Assembly: GCA_963667465.2 (NCBI GenBank)
Contig: CAXXDN010000001.1
Coordinates: forward strand, 256,001 to 320,000
Direction of reading: 5' to 3'
Length of the DNA: 64,000 bases
Origin: Dehalococcoidia bacterium
GTDB taxonomy: Bacteria > Chloroflexota > Dehalococcoidia > UBA2979
Position 1 is the first letter of the stretch. Each line of letters opens with the position of its first letter. The notes under the pieces are model-generated. The model did not search any database and was not told the origin of the DNA. It saw only the letters and a program-made list of their open reading frames with translations. This document shows, piece after piece, positions 48,724 through 56,166 of this stretch. Both the position numbers and the translations under genes were made by a program.

Positions 48724-49809
48724 ATGGACCTCCGGCCGAGCGAACTACAGGAAATTCTCCGCACCAGCGCCACCGAATTCTTCGAGCGCGAGGTGAGCTT
48801 CGAGCGGATCCGCGAGATCGAGGCGGCGAACCGCCCCGACGAGCAGTTGCAGGGCCAGCTGACCGAGCTGGGCTGGAACTCGCTGGCGATCTCCGAGGAC
48901 TACGGCGGCCAGGGCGGGACCGTGCTCGACGCGGGCGTGCTGATCACCCAGATCTGCCGCGCCGCGCTGCCCTCGCCGCTCGCCAGCACCCTCGTCGGCG
49001 CGGTCACGATTGAGCGCCACGGCGACGAGGCGCTGAAGACCTCGCTGCTGCCGCAGCTCAACAGCGGACTCACGATCTCGCCCGCGCTGCTCGAGGCGTC
49101 GGACTCGCTCTACGGCCCGGTCACGGCGGAGTACGCCGGCGGCGCGGTCACGGGCGAGAAGCGCTTCGTCGAGTTCGGCGAGACCAGCGACGTGCACCTT
49201 GTTGCTGCGATGCGTGACGGCGCGCCGGGCCTCGCCGTCGTGCGCCGCGACCAGCCGGGCGTAACGGCCCGCGACACGCGCACGATTGGCGCGCTGCCGC
49301 AGGCGACCGTCCACTACGACGGCGCCGTGGCCGAGGCCTGGATCGAGGGCGCGGACGCCATCGAGACGATGCGCCGCCTCGGGGCGGCGGTCGCCGCGTT
49401 CGAGACCTACACCTACGCGCAGAAGGCGCTCGACCTGACGGTCGACTACGTGCAGATGCGGGTGCAGTTCGGGCAGCCGATCGGCGCGTTCCAGATGGTG
49501 CAGATGCGCTGCGCGGACATGGCGACGATCGTCGAGGGCTCACGCTTCCTCGTGCACGAGCTGCTGTGGCAGATCGACGAGGGCCTCGACACGCGCCGGC
49601 AGGTCGCGGTGGTGAAAGCGGTGACGGCGAAGATGGCCCCGCAGGTCCTGCAGGATTGCCACCTGCTGCACGGCGGCATCGGCTACATGCAGGAGTACGA
49701 CCTGCACTTCTTCACCCGTCGCGGCCGCGACGCCGCACTGCGCTGGGGCAGCGCCCGCGAGACGATGAACATCGTCACCGAGGAGGCCTTCGCCGCCGCC
49801 TCGGCGTAG
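48724..49809 (+). CDS. Acyl-CoA dehydrogenase (partner subunit)
   Basis: RVQFGQPIGAFQ, HGGIGY..EYDL; degenerate middle domain. Confidence 0.88.
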   Translation: MDLRPSELQEILRTSATEFFEREVSFERIREIEAANRPDEQLQGQLTELGWNSLAISEDYGGQGGTVLDAGVLITQICRAALPSPLASTLVGAVTIERHGDEALKTSLLPQLNSGLTISPALLEASDSLYGPVTAEYAGGAVTGEKRFVEFGETSDVHLVAAMRDGAPGLAVVRRDQPGVTARDTRTIGALPQATVHYDGAVAEAWIEGADAIETMRRLGAAVAAFETYTYAQKALDLTVDYVQMRVQFGQPIGAFQMVQMRCADMATIVEGSRFLVHELLWQIDEGLDTRRQVAVVKAVTAKMAPQVLQDCHLLHGGIGYMQEYDLHFFTRRGRDAALRWGSARETMNIVTEEAFAAASA

Positions 49810-49899
49810 CGGGGAGGGCGGTGCTGCCTATTCTCGTTTCGGAGCGATTTCGAAAATAAGACCGCCGATTGTTTTCGTTACCGCAAGTAAGGGCAGCAA

Positions 49900-51249
49900 C
49901 TATGGAAGCCGTCCGCGAAGCGCGGCGGCGGCGAGGCGTCGTGATGAATCGGCGCTTCCGTCGGAGAACGCGACACCTTCCTGGCGTAGCAAGTCTGTCG
50001 GATCACGAGTGTCCGCGGGATCACTCCAACGGAAGCCCTCAGCGATCTGACCTTCAGCCGTCAGCACGCGGTGTGCGGATGAGCAATCGTCGCATGCCGT
50101 AATGTGCCCGCCTACCGCTCGTGCGGAGCTATCGATGGCATCCGCAAGGTCACCGTAGGTGGTCCACTCGCCTGGCTCCAACCGCTCCAGCAAGGTATGC
50201 AGGCCAGACCAGTCGCGGGCTGCCGACGCTGCACCGAGACCAGCCAGAGTAGAGAGGGTCTTGCCATTCTCGGTCTTCCAAGCCCGTGGGCCAGAGATGA
50301 CCGCAGGGCGCTCGCCGGTCGCCCGCTCGACAATCTCCTTCGCCAGCCCAGTCGGACTCCAATCTTCACCGAGCCTCCACCTCAGCGGACGGACCGAGTC
50401 ATTCCTCCAAGCCACCAAGCCTCGCTGTGGATCCTCCCTTATCCACTCCTCAACGCGGCTACGCCAGGCAGGCCGAATCCCTCTCAACTCGAGCTCAAGT
50501 AACTCGCCATCGTCAATGGCACCTTCGGCAACAAGCGTTGCGACAGCATTCCGTTCGCGGCGCGTGCGAACGCGCTCGTCGGCCGCCCGAAGTTCCGCCT
50601 GCCCCGGGGAGACCGTGAAGTCCTCAACGTCCGCCACAGGCCATGTCTGCGAGACGGTGAGCACGAGGTCGTTCGCCGTGCGGTAGGCGTTGAACTCGAT
50701 CAGGGAGACCTTCAGGCCCATCTCTGTCAACCACGCCACACTCGCTGTGACCTGGGGTGGAAAGCTAGCCGCCATCAGCACGATCCGCGGCCGACGAAGC
50801 AGCTCAGTATCGAGCTCACCGCCGACATGCTCGTTGATCCGGGCAAGGGCTTCCTCAGCCGACACCGTTTCATCGGTGACCTTCGACAGGTATGCGGCGT
50901 GAGCAACTGCCAGCGTCTGCGGGGTGAAGCGGCTGGCGAACGCGGCGTACTTGATCGCCTGCATCTCGACGGTGTCCGGGGCCGGGCCGCGCTTCAGTTC
51001 GGCCAAGACGAGATAGCCGTCCGCATCGAGCCCGAGCAGGTCGAGGCGGTCGGCCTCGCGCCCTCTCCTCGACCACCACGCATCGAACTCGAAGGTCACG
51101 ATGTAGACGCCGTCGCCGAGGATCTCAGGATTCTTGCGCACCCACTCCTGCAAGTGGGCCCGCTCGCGGAAGCCCGCTTCCGCGAGGCTGATCTGCGTTG
51201 CGGGCGTGGCAGCCCCGGGCTTGACCGTGAAGACCAACTCGCCAGGCAT
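49900..51249 (-). CDS. NucS/EndoMS-like PD-(D/E)XK nuclease fused to RAMA-like and alkyltransferase-like (ATL) domains
   Basis: ERAHLQEW..RLDLLGLD..LAELKR..QAIKY; WSPTGLA..SGPRAW..GKTL; PGEWTTYGDLA..ARAVG..AHRV. Confidence 0.75.
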   Translation of the reverse strand: MPGELVFTVKPGAATPATQISLAEAGFRERAHLQEWVRKNPEILGDGVYIVTFEFDAWWSRRGREADRLDLLGLDADGYLVLAELKRGPAPDTVEMQAIKYAAFASRFTPQTLAVAHAAYLSKVTDETVSAEEALARINEHVGGELDTELLRRPRIVLMAASFPPQVTASVAWLTEMGLKVSLIEFNAYRTANDLVLTVSQTWPVADVEDFTVSPGQAELRAADERVRTRRERNAVATLVAEGAIDDGELLELELRGIRPAWRSRVEEWIREDPQRGLVAWRNDSVRPLRWRLGEDWSPTGLAKEIVERATGERPAVISGPRAWKTENGKTLSTLAGLGAASAARDWSGLHTLLERLEPGEWTTYGDLADAIDSSARAVGGHITACDDCSSAHRVLTAEGQIAEGFRWSDPADTRDPTDLLRQEGVAFSDGSADSSRRLAAAALRGRLP

Positions 51250-51333
51250 GAAGCAACACCCCCTGCTCCCGGCGCAGGCTACGCAAATGCCGAGGGGCTG
51301 TCACTGGCGCTCGGCGAGCACCCGCCCGGATCG

Positions 51334-52161
51334 TCAGCCGAGCTCCTCCGCCGTCCGATCGCCTGCGTCGTAGTCGGCGAACAGCTCGTCGTAGTGCTCC
51401 TGCAGCACGTCCCGGGCGTCGGGGTGGGTGAAGATGAAGCGGCGGTTCTCGCGGGCGCCCTGCAGCAGGCGAGGGATGAACGCCTCCGGGGGCGGCGCCT
51501 CGATGCGGGGCGGGGCGAAGTCGTCGTCGGGACCGCCGTAGCGCTGCTGGCGGACGCGCACGGCCCTGCGGATTTGCGTGTCCATCCGGCTCGGGCACCA
51601 GCACGAGACACCGATGCCCTCGGCCGCGAGCTCGTGTCGCAGCACGTTCGAATAGCCAACGACGGCGTGCTTCGCGGCGGTGTAGATGCCATTGACGTTC
51701 TGCCGCCCGACGAGGCCGGACATCGAGGAGGTGAGCACGACCTGCGCCGGTCCCTCCTGCTCGCGCAGCAGCGGCAGAAACGCCTGCACGCTGTGGATCG
51801 CGCCCCAGAGGTTGACCGCGAGCACCCACTCCCAGTCCTCGCTTGTCGCCTCGGCCAGCGGTGTGCTCTTCATCACCCCGGCGTTCTCGAACAGCACGAG
51901 CCCGCTGCGCTCGGCGCCAAACTCGGCGCGCGTGCGCCCGGCCAGCGCATCGACCGAGGCGCGGTCCGCAATGTCCGTGCGCACGGCGATCGCCTCGCCG
52001 CCGCTCTCGCGGATCGCCGCGGCGACAGCCTCGCCCGCGTCGCCGTCGATGTCGGCGGCGACGACGCGCATGCCGTCCGCCGCACAGGCATGGGCGAGTG
52101 CGCGCCCCGCGCCGCCGCCCGCACCCGTCACCACCGCCACGCTGCCCATGAAATCCTGCAT
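51334..52161 (-). CDS. SDR-family oxidoreductase
   Basis: TGAGGGAG, NAGV, YTAAK. Confidence 0.9.
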   Translation of the reverse strand: MQDFMGSVAVVTGAGGGAGRALAHACAADGMRVVAADIDGDAGEAVAAAIRESGGEAIAVRTDIADRASVDALAGRTRAEFGAERSGLVLFENAGVMKSTPLAEATSEDWEWVLAVNLWGAIHSVQAFLPLLREQEGPAQVVLTSSMSGLVGRQNVNGIYTAAKHAVVGYSNVLRHELAAEGIGVSCWCPSRMDTQIRRAVRVRQQRYGGPDDDFAPPRIEAPPPEAFIPRLLQGARENRRFIFTHPDARDVLQEHYDELFADYDAGDRTAEELG

Positions 52162-54344: not shown

Positions 54345-55157
54345 TCAGCTCACGCAGCCGACGCCGTCCCCGTCGCGGTCCAACTCGTGCGGGTCGGGGG
54401 GCAGCACGCGGATGTCGTGGTGCTCGATGTCCCCGCAGTTGAGGTTGGGGGGCGGCGGCGGGATGCACACGTCGGGGTAGGCGTCGGCGCACTCGCCGGT
54501 CCCGGATGCCTCGTCGCTCCCCACGTCGGCGTCGTCCTCAGCCTCGCCGTCTGTCTCGCAGGCCGTCCAGAGGCCCGCGCCTGCCTCGCGCGCTCCCGTC
54601 TCGGCGTCCAGCAGGCGCTGCTCGTGCTGCTCATCGTCTCCTGAATGGTAGACGGTCGCGTAGCCGCCCTCGATGAGCAGCTCGTTCAGCATCCGTCCGT
54701 CCTCGAGGTAGACGTAGCGCAGCAGGCGGCCGAACGAGCCCGTGTCCTTCACATCGCGCTCCAGGCGCACCGCGGAGCCCTCCGGCAGCAGCGAGGACAC
54801 GTACGCGCTCGCCTCCGGCCCATAGCACTCCACGCCGCCGAAGACCTCGGGCGTGTCGACGAGCAGCAGCCGCACGCGCTGCGTCTCGCCGCCGATCGTG
54901 ACGTCGATCGTGTCGCCGTCGACGACACGTGAGACGACGGCCTGCGACTCATCGATGACCCAACGCTCGACGAAGCGCTCGTTGACCCAGTCGGGCGCGG
55001 CCGGGAAGTAGGAATGCCATTCGCCGTCCTCGTCCTGCACCCAGACGGAACGCGCGCCCTCGAGGTCGAGCGTGAGCCCGGGCGCGGAGGCGCGCGCATC
55101 GACGGCTGCGACGAACAGGCAGACTGCCGCGAGCAGCGCGAACACAGCCTTCGTCAT
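54345..55157 (-). CDS. Secreted thermonuclease (SNase) with C-terminal Ca-binding-like motif
   Basis: Signal peptide; VVDGDTI, RVRLLLVDTPE, FGRLLRYVY, GLW; LDRDGDGVGC. Confidence 0.88.
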   Translation of the reverse strand: MTKAVFALLAAVCLFVAAVDARASAPGLTLDLEGARSVWVQDEDGEWHSYFPAAPDWVNERFVERWVIDESQAVVSRVVDGDTIDVTIGGETQRVRLLLVDTPEVFGGVECYGPEASAYVSSLLPEGSAVRLERDVKDTGSFGRLLRYVYLEDGRMLNELLIEGGYATVYHSGDDEQHEQRLLDAETGAREAGAGLWTACETDGEAEDDADVGSDEASGTGECADAYPDVCIPPPPPNLNCGDIEHHDIRVLPPDPHELDRDGDGVGCVS

Positions 55158-55270
55158 CGCCCGTCTCCCGTCCTGCGGCGCCCCTCGCACGCCTCGCAGG
55201 CAAGCCTAGCGCGTGGGGCGGCGAGCGACGTGGCGCAGTTGTGCGAAGATGGAGGCCGCCGGAGGCAATC

Positions 55271-55510
55271 ATGGTGACCAGACACTTCCGCGCCAGGTAC
55301 TCGAAGGGCGTGCTCGAACCCCTCGAGACGATCGACCTCGAGGAGGGGGCCGAGGTGTCCCTGTCCATCAAGGAGGAGCCCTCACCGGATGAAGCCGGGG
55401 AAGCATTCCGGCGCTCTGCTGGAAGTTGGGGTGGCCAGGATCCCGACGAGTTGATCCGGATGCTCTACGAGTCCCGCATTACCGGTTCGCGGGAGCCCCC
55501 GGACCCGTAG
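55271..55510 (+). CDS. AF2212/DUF104-like antitoxin, copy 1
   Basis: RARYSKGVLEPLE.IDLEEGAEV. Confidence 0.85.
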   Translation: MVTRHFRARYSKGVLEPLETIDLEEGAEVSLSIKEEPSPDEAGEAFRRSAGSWGGQDPDELIRMLYESRITGSREPPDP

Positions 55511-55526: not shown

Positions 55527-55769
55527 ATGGTGACCAGGCACGTCCGCGCCAGATACTCGAAGGGCGTCCTCGAACCCCTTGAGGCGATCGACCTCGAGGA
55601 GGGGGCCGAGGTTTCGCTGTCCATCGAGGAGGAGCCCTCGCCGAAGCACGACCCGGAGGCGATGAGGGCCGGTGCCGGCGGCTGGGTCGGCCAGCATGAT
55701 CCCGAGGAGCTCAAGCGAACGATCTACGAGGCTCGCATCACAGGTTCGCGGGAACGGCCAACTCCCTAG
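55527..55769 (+). CDS. AF2212/DUF104-like antitoxin, copy 2
   Basis: Tandem paralog with the same GGAGGCAATC leader; directly precedes the PIN gene. Confidence 0.85.
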   Translation: MVTRHVRARYSKGVLEPLEAIDLEEGAEVSLSIEEEPSPKHDPEAMRAGAGGWVGQHDPEELKRTIYEARITGSRERPTP

Positions 55770-55773
55770 CGCC

Positions 55774-56166
55774 GTGGAGCACATGGTCGACACGGACTGG
55801 GTCATCGACTACATGCACCAGGTGTCGCATGTAGTGGACCGCGTTGCAGAGTTGACCCCGGCCGGAATCGGACTGAGCGTGATTTCGCTCGCTGAGCTCT
55901 ACGAGGGTGTGCAAGGGGATGTGGACTCGCAGCGCAGTGAGCGCGAGTTGGACGCCTTCCTTGAGCGCGTGTACTTGCTAGACCTCGATGAGGGGACCTG
56001 CCGAATCTTCGGCAGGGAACGCGCCCGCCTGCGGTCGGCCGGAATGCTTATCGGCGACCTCGATCTCCTGATCGGCGCAACCGCGTTGCGGCACGGGCTC
56101 ACCCTGCTCACCAACAACCGACGCCACTTCGACCGGATCGAGGGGCTGGCGATCGAGTCGGTCTGA
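55774..56166 (+). CDS. VapC/PIN toxin
   Basis: VDTDWVID, SVISLAELYEG, DLLIGATAL, LLTNNRRHF. Confidence 0.9.
   Translation: MEHMVDTDWVIDYMHQVSHVVDRVAELTPAGIGLSVISLAELYEGVQGDVDSQRSERELDAFLERVYLLDLDEGTCRIFGRERARLRSAGMLIGDLDLLIGATALRHGLTLLTNNRRHFDRIEGLAIESV

Follow-up and report, generated by a model that had tools for sequence, protein, structure and literature searches.

The gene and its nuclease module

The window, i.e. the whole stretch of DNA that was analysed, comprises 64,000 nucleotides of a Dehalococcoidia bacterium (assembly GCA_963667465.2, contig CAXXDN010000001.1, positions 256,001 to 320,000 of the forward strand). The present analysis deals with one gene of this window, located on the reverse strand at 49900..51249, where an ATG starts an open reading frame (ORF) of 449 amino acids (aa) (ORF list; the sub-ranges were re-translated). 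The encoded protein joins a NucS-type nuclease module to a RAMA-like and an alkyltransferase-like (ATL) domain, and we regard it as a candidate modification-dependent anti-phage nuclease. Its features, all on the reverse strand, are given below together with their basis.

49900..51249 (-): whole coding sequence, 449 aa plus stop, PDC-S11-like nuclease with three domains (ORF list)
50626..51249 (-): NucS-type PD-(D/E)XK nuclease module, aa 1-208, the chassis common to PADLOC PDC-S11 ('Madara') (PADLOC profiles, VIA, Foldseek)
50992..51042 (-): catalytic core D70...E84-x-K86 (DLLGLDADGYLVLAELK), with E54 upstream and Q97/Y101 downstream (translation, conservation)
50518..50625 (-): aa 209-244, a loop of low model confidence and, behind it, the long linker helix (215-242) (secondary structure of the model; predicted local distance difference test, pLDDT)
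50230..50517 (-): RAMA-like (SAND-like fold) putative DNA-binding domain, aa 245-340, with an inserted helix at about aa 260-277 (domain model, VIA, hhalign)
49954..50214 (-): cysteine-less MGMT-fold (ATL-like) domain, aa 346-432 (PF01035, VIA)
50065..50094 (-): CDDCSSAHRV, i.e. C386-x-x-C389 and then the PCHR-equivalent S-A-H-R with Ala392 at the acceptor-cysteine position (translation, conservation)
49900..49953 (-): C-terminal tail, aa 433-449 plus stop, poorly conserved (mean pairwise identity 0.38)

A homologue search (8000 candidates scored) returned 421 matches at E ≤ 1e-3, and 74 full-length homologues were aligned, which are the source of all residue counts given as x/74. The 449-aa ORF and the motifs quoted in a preliminary description of this DNA (RLDLLGLD, ELKR, QAIKY, WSPTGLA, SGPRAW, GKTL, PGEWTTYGDLA, ARAVG, CDDC and SAHRV) were all found in place. 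Since E54, D67, R68, D70, E84, K86, R87 and Q97 as well as W269, W281, W291, G320, W324, H351, W362, C386, C389 and R394 are invariant throughout the alignment, these motifs are not a product of chance. The AlphaFold2 model built on the 74 homologues (mean pLDDT 87.0) shows three folded regions which a long helix connects; the linker, aa 209-244, has a mean pairwise identity of 0.44 in the same alignment.

Five PDC-S11 models of PADLOC match the protein with E values from 3.1e-45 to 4.4e-24 and cover aa 6-233, among them PDLC04913 (aa 16-225, E 3.1e-45) and PDLC04909 (aa 6-233, E 4.3e-45). PADLOC candidate PDC-S11 was renamed 'Madara' in a preprint of September 2026, which reports that the system of E. 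coli ECOR34 restricts wild-type T4 and not unmodified T4(C), that its targets are the cytosine-hypermodified T-even phages, that the mutation D63A abolishes defence and that the C-terminal domain is distantly EVE-like (bioRxiv 10.64898/2026.09.05.749240). The window protein resembles Madara in being encoded by a single gene, in its homologous N-terminal module (E about 1e-45) and in the order nuclease, linker, C-terminal sensor. Furthermore, the catalytic aspartate is essential in Madara according to the same text, and the equivalent motif is invariant in the window family.

By structure, the module was assigned to the NucS type as proposed in the preliminary description. VIA comparison gave a Z of 12.4 to EndoMS 5gke_A (root-mean-square deviation, rmsd, 2.3 over 109 aligned residues) and of 12.2 to Pyrococcus abyssi NucS 2vld_A, and a Foldseek search of the module reached E 3.6e-4. 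Pfam NucS_C was detected in 53/74 family members (best E 3.4e-5); for the window protein itself no match was obtained at E ≤ 1, and none was found in the gene's own genome. A search of the PDB with the single sequence of the window protein returned nothing significant, the best match being 1mgt at E 0.055. In the alignment of the family profile with P. abyssi NucS, positions 69-91 fall on 159-181 and place D70, E84 and K86 on residues 160, 174 and 176, which we take to be catalytic residues of NucS. D70, E84, K86 and Q97 are each present in 74/74 members and Y101 in 73/74.

The likeness to NucS/EndoMS comprises the fold of the catalytic domain and the D-x13-E-x-K spacing, but only the C-terminal nuclease half of the chain is matched (residues about 127-235). 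Neither Pfam nor structural alignment of the window protein revealed the N-terminal (mismatch-binding/dimerisation) domain of NucS, the two NucS equivalog models of NCBIfam scored 17.1 and 14.6 bits where 216 and 252 are required, and the window-gene family differs from NucS/EndoMS in its patchy, island-like distribution. On these three grounds canonical NucS mismatch repair was rejected as a function of the gene. A homodimer prediction with two copies of aa 1-232 gave a score of 0.37 against a mark of 0.42; by analogy to NucS and Madara, the nuclease probably acts as a dimer.

The Madara-like match ends behind the linker. In the window protein and six relatives, among them 345-aa forms without the ATL domain, the PDC-S11 profiles cease to match at about residue 225-238. 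For comparison, the E. coli PDC-S11 members examined, present in 138/5426 genomes, are annotated 'DUF4268 domain-containing protein', and a full-length one consists of nuclease and DUF4268 (E 1.6e-182, profile positions 1-373 of 375); the DUF4268 subtype is known from these members. Pfam found no DUF4268 in the window protein, which ends in the RAMA-like and ATL-like domains instead. Four of 29 relative ORFs scanned have the layout nuclease, RAMA-like domain and DUF4268 and match PDC-S11 profiles at both ends, and other relatives carry DUF5655 (one ORF), the RAMA-like domain only, or RAMA-like plus ATL domains. Hence, the RAMA-ATL cassette would appear to replace DUF4268, the usual C-terminal sensor of Madara. 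The target of the window protein is probably also different from cytosine hypermodification, and its host is a high-GC member of the Chloroflexota, not E. coli. These observations extend the Madara family into Chloroflexota and Actinomycetota and point to a modular sensor end.

In two E. coli loci the PDC-S11 (DUF4268) gene was observed between hsdS and hsdR of type I restriction-modification (R-M) operons (L113:2215-10196; L119:5760-13210); one of them is an IncFIB plasmid, the other a tRNA-Leu integrative island which also holds TIR and phosphorothioate-dependent restriction endonuclease (REase) genes.

The three-domain form is common in databases, as most of the best 120 clusters listed are 440-475 aa long with full query coverage. 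The named clusters of that list are called 'MGMT family protein' or 'alkylated DNA nucleotide flippase Atl1', and the nearest ESM Atlas cluster is an 'MGMT family protein' with 90 members. The architecture is thus already catalogued, a case the preliminary description had considered, but no other function is attached to these names. A second, distant PDC-S11-like lineage is represented by P0121 (27% identity), which has the canonical PWHRV form of the ATL motif; here, too, members with PF01035 (about 440-456 aa) occur beside members that lack it (about 345-365 aa), and a search yielded 1477 matches to this family at E ≤ 1e-10. The gene of P0121 (L016:9489-10859 (-), ATL motif VPWHRV) lies in congener G010 next to a short-chain dehydrogenase gene. 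Plasmid records with relatives of the nuclease module numbered 110, all below 60% identity. The phage collection yielded a single weak partial match (34% identity, aa 15-213), which gives no hint of a copy carried by phages.

The RAMA-ATL cassette

The middle domain had been called RAMA-like in the preliminary description, and its structural matches were in line with this name. Folded alone, aa 245-340 reached a pLDDT of 91.8. Among 48,161 chains searched with VIA, mouse MPND 7ydt_A came first (Z 7.2, rmsd 2.5, 74 aligned), followed by residues 282-355 of CcrM 6pbd_B (Z 6.6), presumably the RAMA domain of CcrM; SAND domains ranked lower (1oqj with Z 5.2, another with 4.3) and unrelated folds did not exceed Z 4.1. 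A Z of about 7 is of middling strength. The matched part of 7ydt_A is the N-terminal RAMA domain of MPND, according to its published description, and an MPND-DNA complex was also the best Foldseek match (TM 0.51, E 0.68).

At the sequence level the domain lies below Pfam detection: RAMA (PF18755) and DUF4357 did not match the window protein at E ≤ 1, and RAMA was not found genome-wide at E ≤ 0.001; the same model does match in the Caulobacter vibrioides control genome. Within the family RAMA was called in 2/74 and DUF4357 in 3/74 members (E about 0.07-0.08). An hhalign comparison with 12 Pfam-called RAMA stretches gave E 0.0048 and a probability of 7% over 72 colinear columns, which is weak when taken alone. 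The middle domain has the RAMA signature SP(S/T)G(A/L)A ... G(W/P)..W ... G..L in common with the RAMA domains of MPND (7ydt/7ydw) and CcrM (6pbd), its two top structural matches, and differs from them, apart from its poor detectability, by the extra inserted helix. The best evidence that it is a diverged RAMA domain, here termed RAMA-like, is a BLASTP bridge to P0127, a protein with the layout GmrSD-RAMA-ATL. When aa 235-449 were compared with P0127, aa 297-446 aligned with 626-773 (44% identity, E 1e-37) in one unbroken alignment that begins within RAMA and continues across the ATL domain, H..CxxC..AHRV included. Of the Pfam-called RAMA of P0127 the bridge covers no more than the C-terminal half (aa 297-340 of the window protein).

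For the C-terminal domain the evidence is more direct, and the ATL assignment of the preliminary description stood. PF01035 matches the window protein with 32.4 bits (curated cut-off 27) and all 74 members. VIA gave a Z of 11.3 to 3gx4_X (Schizosaccharomyces pombe Atl1 with DNA), 10.0 to 3gva and 9.8 to 2kif, compared with 8-9.5 for active MGMTs, so that the domain stands nearer to the ATLs; Atl1 was also the best PDB sequence match of the family profile (E 0.0031). At position 392, the site of the acceptor cysteine, the 74 members carry Ala (57), Gly (13), Val (2), Thr (1) or Pro (1) and in no case Cys. Because of Ala392 the domain cannot accept an alkyl group at the canonical site. An active MGMT was rejected on the missing acceptor-position cysteine. 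The NCBIfam MGMT equivalogs scored 20 bits (cut-offs 164-250).

Y365 (73/74) and R394 (74/74) align with Tyr25 and Arg58 of Atl1, and F406 and W408 are near-invariant. Position 377 corresponds to the arginine finger of ATL and MGMT (Arg39 of Atl1); it is Arg in the window protein and in 26/74 members, and Gln in 25 and Ile in 14 of them. Next to the invariant C386, C389 and H351, H382 is conserved in 72/74 members, and this conservation suggests a possible metal site; in the preliminary description the CDDC pair was a candidate for metal binding or for supplying another acceptor cysteine. The CxxC pair is missing from the GmrSD-ATL proteins P0131 and P0136 (2/8 sequences compared), which argues against a universal catalytic role of C386 and C389. 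Both Atl1 and the ATL of Vibrio parahaemolyticus (2kif) have the fold and lack of acceptor cysteine in common with the window domain. In contrast, Atl1 stands alone at about 110 aa whereas the window domain is fused to a nuclease, Trp56 of Atl1 is replaced by Ala or Gly in the window family, Arg39 of Atl1 has a variable equivalent there, and Atl1 has neither the CxxC nor H351/H382 and does not share the defence contexts in which the window family occurs.

The cassette was likewise found on proteins with other chassis. A search with aa 343-449 alone returned 28 proteins at E ≤ 1e-5, including GmrSD-family proteins of about 700-777 aa. In three of the 28 (P0124, P0125 and P0127) a Pfam-called RAMA/DUF4357 lies directly upstream of PF01035; P0126 is a further GmrSD-type protein that was compared with the cassette by BLASTP. 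A cassette profile of 25 sequences, searched among 1.84 billion proteins, matched 1429 representatives at E ≤ 1e-3, 638 at E ≤ 1e-10 and 103 at E ≤ 1e-30. From 150 listed representatives, 44 were scanned, which had been chosen non-randomly by length (≥ 334 aa) and unusual match position. GmrSD_N and/or GmrSD_C were present in 20/44. Single representatives had the McrB-like layout Mrr_N-ATL-AAA_5 (P0280, with the ATL domain N-terminal, the reader position in such systems), PIN_8 plus ATL (P0287), TIR_2 plus a RAMA-like part (P0220) and a weak OLD-TOPRIM match; two had a Pfam RAMA match (one also PF01035), and the remaining 18/44 showed PF01035 only or nothing. The GmrSD type IV enzymes thus have the RAMA-ATL cassette in common with the window protein, and in them Pfam recognises the RAMA part, but their nuclease chassis is unrelated (DUF262/DUF1524 versus PD-(D/E)XK) and P0131 and P0136 are without the CxxC pair. 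A 2015 survey lists DUF4268, DUF4357 and PF01035 as add-ons of GmrSD homologues, mainly from Streptomyces, and assigns them no function (Machnicka et al. 2015, PMC4619093).

Neighbourhoods and variation of the gene

In the window the gene stands, as stated in the preliminary description, alone between catabolic genes, its neighbours coding for a CoA-transferase, two acyl-CoA dehydrogenases, a short-chain dehydrogenase, an enoyl-CoA hydratase and a luciferase-like monooxygenase. This picture does not extend to the relatives, in which the same slot holds defence and toxin-antitoxin genes. The earlier statements on the methyltransferase and on codon usage hold. The scan of 10 neighbouring ORFs revealed no methyltransferase. 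The fraction of G or C at third codon positions is 0.74 for the whole gene, 0.84 for codons 1-225 and 0.64 for codons 226-449, compared with 0.90-0.95 in five neighbour genes, and the GC content over the ORF is 0.62-0.66 versus about 0.68-0.74 in most flanking segments. A promoter and terminator scan of 49600-51600 gave nothing exceeding shuffled expectation.

The neighbourhood survey suggested in the preliminary description was based on 80 related loci. They belong to Chloroflexota, Actinomycetota, Dormibacterota, Deinococcota and others, and cultured hosts of homologues include Actinotalea lenta, Blastococcus deserti and Brachybacterium conglomeratum. Of these, 21 full-length-match loci outside the window's genus were taken by hand, three had no intact ORF, and up to three ORFs per side (heuristic GC-frame ORF calls) were scanned in the remaining 18. 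Restriction, defence or mobile-element genes were found within three ORFs in 13 of the 14 intact non-Chloroflexota loci (a raw count), the sole exception being Amycolatopsis, and in one of the four other Chloroflexota loci (HEC-07 match). The neighbours in the 13 loci, with loci separated by semicolons within each line, are:

TIR effector; type IIG R-M; DruE-like helicase; ZacA or ZacAB (two loci); GmrSD
McrBC with NERD-helicase and TIR; GmrSD_C with type I R-M
TrwC relaxase with transposase and Ppl-like ATPase; SIR2 with PIN_8; type I HsdR
HsdM with DarT/macro and REase; ZacA with McrB-like protein and ZorA

Split-frame homologues were observed at L051 (Blastococcus deserti), L111, L042 and L081. 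The Blastococcus frameshift is probably real since it stems from an isolate genome.

Within the genus a close homologue occurs in 10/18 congeners and is intact in seven; the three broken copies carry stops (G015), are split across frames (G017) or lie in two distant pieces (G009). In the nine congener loci fetched the gene is near the same acyl-CoA dehydrogenase pair as in the window, and it is absent from that slot in G004 and G014. According to tblastn, a SoFic (Fic/DOC) gene adjoins it in 5/9 congener loci and not in the window (L009:10716-11897; also L011, L012, L014 and L015), supported by PADLOC in one locus (E 3e-115) and by Pfam Fic in three. A RES toxin gene with a 239-aa partner lies in the same slot in G012 and G011 and in the gene-less G004 and G014 (L007:10756-12153; L008:7786-9177; L118:9708-11099; L117:9757-11025). 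As two of the four RES-carrying congeners are without the nuclease gene, the cargo of the slot varies independently. A transposase, a second NucS_C protein and a HATPase_c_3 protein are also carried there. The second NucS_C protein, from this variable region of congener G016, is unrelated, has 476 aa and carries NucS_C at its C-terminus (L009:14393-15823 (-), Pfam E 3e-13); to it, PDC-S02 and PDC-S11 of PADLOC match weakly.

The gene is far more divergent than its surroundings. Between the window and G001 the proteins are 67% identical, compared with 97-98% for the flanking proteins, and between G016 and G013 the values are 75% and 99%. Nucleotide identity to G001 falls with sharp edges from about 97% to 39-63% in the sensor half and 75-78% in the nuclease half and returns to 91-96% in the next gene. 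For one close pair the ratio of nonsynonymous to synonymous substitution rates (dN/dS) is 0.23 with dS 0.26, compared with 0.12 and 0.09 for the flank; by part it amounts to 0.20 for the nuclease and 0.26 for the rest. The low dN/dS shows that the protein is kept functional by purifying selection, and in this pair, the only one available, positive selection is not supported. Instead, the raised dS (0.26; flank 0.09) is a sign of allele exchange, the locus carrying old alleles that have been exchanged. In another genome, P0122 (285 aa) joins an N-terminal acyl-CoA dehydrogenase fragment to 107 aa of ATL-like sequence at the C-terminus, 77% identical to that of the window protein; it resembles what a deletion or rearrangement at this locus would leave behind.

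Proposed function and rival explanations

Type IV restriction enzymes combine a nuclease with a reader of modified DNA, and the reader decides which phages are hit. The window gene has this anatomy: the nuclease is fused to putative readers, and a methyltransferase is missing from the 10 neighbouring ORFs. We consider it probable, by a modest majority of our weight, that the protein is a single-protein modification-dependent (type IV-like) anti-phage nuclease of the PDC-S11/Madara family with a different sensor. This reading is drawn from the Madara-type chassis, the swapping of sensors, the occurrence of the cassette on GmrSD, McrB-like, PIN and TIR proteins, the defence context, the accessory-gene behaviour and the separate canonical MGMT-domain gene of the same genome (128 bits). 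The preliminary description had guessed at modification-dependent restriction or defence, and the guess gains support from the PDC-S11/Madara module, reported as belonging to a modification-dependent anti-phage nuclease, from the cassette on GmrSD type IV enzymes and from the defence islands.

Mechanistically, the RAMA-ATL cassette would dock on DNA, the RAMA-like part contacting the duplex, and the ATL-like pocket (Tyr365, the H-R-V motif and Phe406/Trp408) would flip out and hold a non-canonical base foreign to host DNA. Once a base is bound, the nuclease, probably a dimer, would be licensed to cleave the invading DNA, and a partner methyltransferase would be unneeded. The flipped base would most plausibly be a modified purine; this choice, the weakest step of the scheme, is favoured because the pockets of known ATLs hold O6-substituted guanine. 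Modified cytosine, methyl-adenine and phosphorothioate are the marks read by well-studied type IV enzymes, and candidate purine ligands, in analogy to O6-alkylguanine and 2-aminopurine, are 2-aminoadenine, 7-deazaguanine derivatives and N6-substituted adenines. Tentatively, with less than even confidence, we extend the proposal to a defence-associated ATL clade (H..[CxxC]..A-[HYW]-R-V, F..W pocket) that may act as a base-flipping reader of hypermodified purines, with the mobile RAMA-ATL cassette retargeting PDC-S11/Madara, GmrSD, McrB-like and PIN chassis.

Several points weigh against the proposed anti-phage function. In nature, known ATLs bind damage lesions and not phage modifications, and the variability of R377 may indicate a flipping mechanism differing from that of Atl1. 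Members with the sensor cassette are known from sequence and predicted fold alone. The modification-reader role of RAMA is described in print as unconfirmed or disputed. In the window and in 3/4 other Chloroflexota loci the neighbours are metabolic and not defence genes, the 13/14 neighbourhood figure is a raw count, and several broken copies stem from metagenome assemblies, in which frameshifts can be assembly errors. Finally, the activity data on Madara itself come from a preprint (bioRxiv 10.64898/2026.09.05.749240).

Three other functions have to be weighed. The sensing cassette could belong to an abortive-infection effector, which would respond to a phage-induced state (modified or damaged DNA, replication intermediates) and kill the cell by non-specific DNA degradation. 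The neighbours of the relatives include the abortive-type genes TIR, SIR2, DarTG, RES and SoFic, and the repeated decay of the gene would be expected if it were costly and toxic; yet the reader-plus-nuclease layout shared with GmrSD and McrB-type enzymes fits direct restriction better, and no conserved antitoxin-like or regulatory partner adjoins the gene in the loci scanned, so that we think this function unlikely. Alternatively, the ATL-like domain could find O6-alkylguanine or bulkier O6 adducts in host DNA and the NucS-type nuclease could nick beside the lesion, thereby condensing the hand-over from ATL to excision repair into a single protein. By fold and sequence the C-terminal domain is indeed nearest to the damage sensor Atl1, NucS/EndoMS acts in repair, the neighbours in the window and in related Chloroflexota are housekeeping or catabolic genes in one chromosomal slot genus-wide, and a dN/dS of 0.23 indicates purifying selection. 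Such a role is difficult to reconcile with defence or mobile islands at 13/14 non-Chloroflexota loci, with a cassette common to GmrSD, McrB-like, PIN and TIR proteins, and with the patchy occurrence and broken copies within the genus. The 67% identity against 97-98% in the flanks and the raised dS are unlike a core repair gene, the N-terminal domain of NucS is missing, and a canonical MGMT-domain gene is present elsewhere in the genome. Excision repair is therefore the less likely of the two readings offered in the preliminary description, and we rate it as quite unlikely.

The third alternative is restriction dependent on N6-methyladenine: the RAMA-like domain would recognise the mark, and the ATL-like domain would do no more than help to grip DNA non-specifically. 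RAMA has been proposed as a reader of adenine methylation and RAMA-nuclease fusions have been noted in print, family forms with the RAMA-like but without the ATL domain exist, and the fold matches the RAMA domains of MPND and CcrM. Against this, the host genome contains one Dam-class (D12), three N6/N4 and one C5 methyltransferase genes, so that a general N6-methyladenine trigger would, if these enzymes are active, entail a risk of self-cleavage; furthermore, conservation is higher in the ATL-like than in the RAMA-like domain (mean identity 0.54 versus 0.43 in the 74-member alignment), with near-invariant pocket residues. The preliminary description had mentioned RAMA as a proposed methyl-adenine reader, and this part of it, like the modified purine as target, gained no support. 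Given a methyl preference that is unconfirmed in print and the host's own adenine and cytosine methyltransferase genes, a general N6-methyladenine trigger is unlikely, and the complete alternative appears to us improbable.

If the anti-phage nuclease with a purine-reading sensor is indeed encoded here, a repair-derived sensor would provide type IV restriction against purine modifications. To our knowledge, the ATL/MGMT fold is known only from alkylation repair; here it stands in place of the reader on at least three unrelated chassis (PDC-S11-like, GmrSD and McrB-like) and is found on a PIN-domain protein as well. As a reader of phage DNA modification it would represent a new reader class with a new specificity, a repair sensor recruited to immunity and possibly a reagent for the detection of modified bases. 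Type IV restriction and the PDC-S11/Madara chassis are already known, and the architecture is in databases under its repair-derived name. Searches of open-access papers and bioRxiv yielded no binding data on Atl1 with diaminopurine and no report of RAMA-ATL as an alternative sensor on the Madara chassis, of the cassette common to GmrSD, or of an ATL domain on McrB-like or PIN proteins, and no function for the defence-type ATL; related fusions appeared only in the 2015 domain list.

Some further genes were observed at a distance from the nuclease gene. The window codes for a staphylococcal-nuclease homologue at 54345-55190 (-) and a PIN-domain (VapC-like) protein at 55672-56166 (+), the latter preceded by a small ORF at 55241-55510 that could be an antitoxin. 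Outside the window, the region G000:C1:856921-873756 of the same genome holds an N6/N4 methyltransferase, a D12 methyltransferase and the canonical MGMT-domain gene within about 17 kb and could be an R-M or mobile region.

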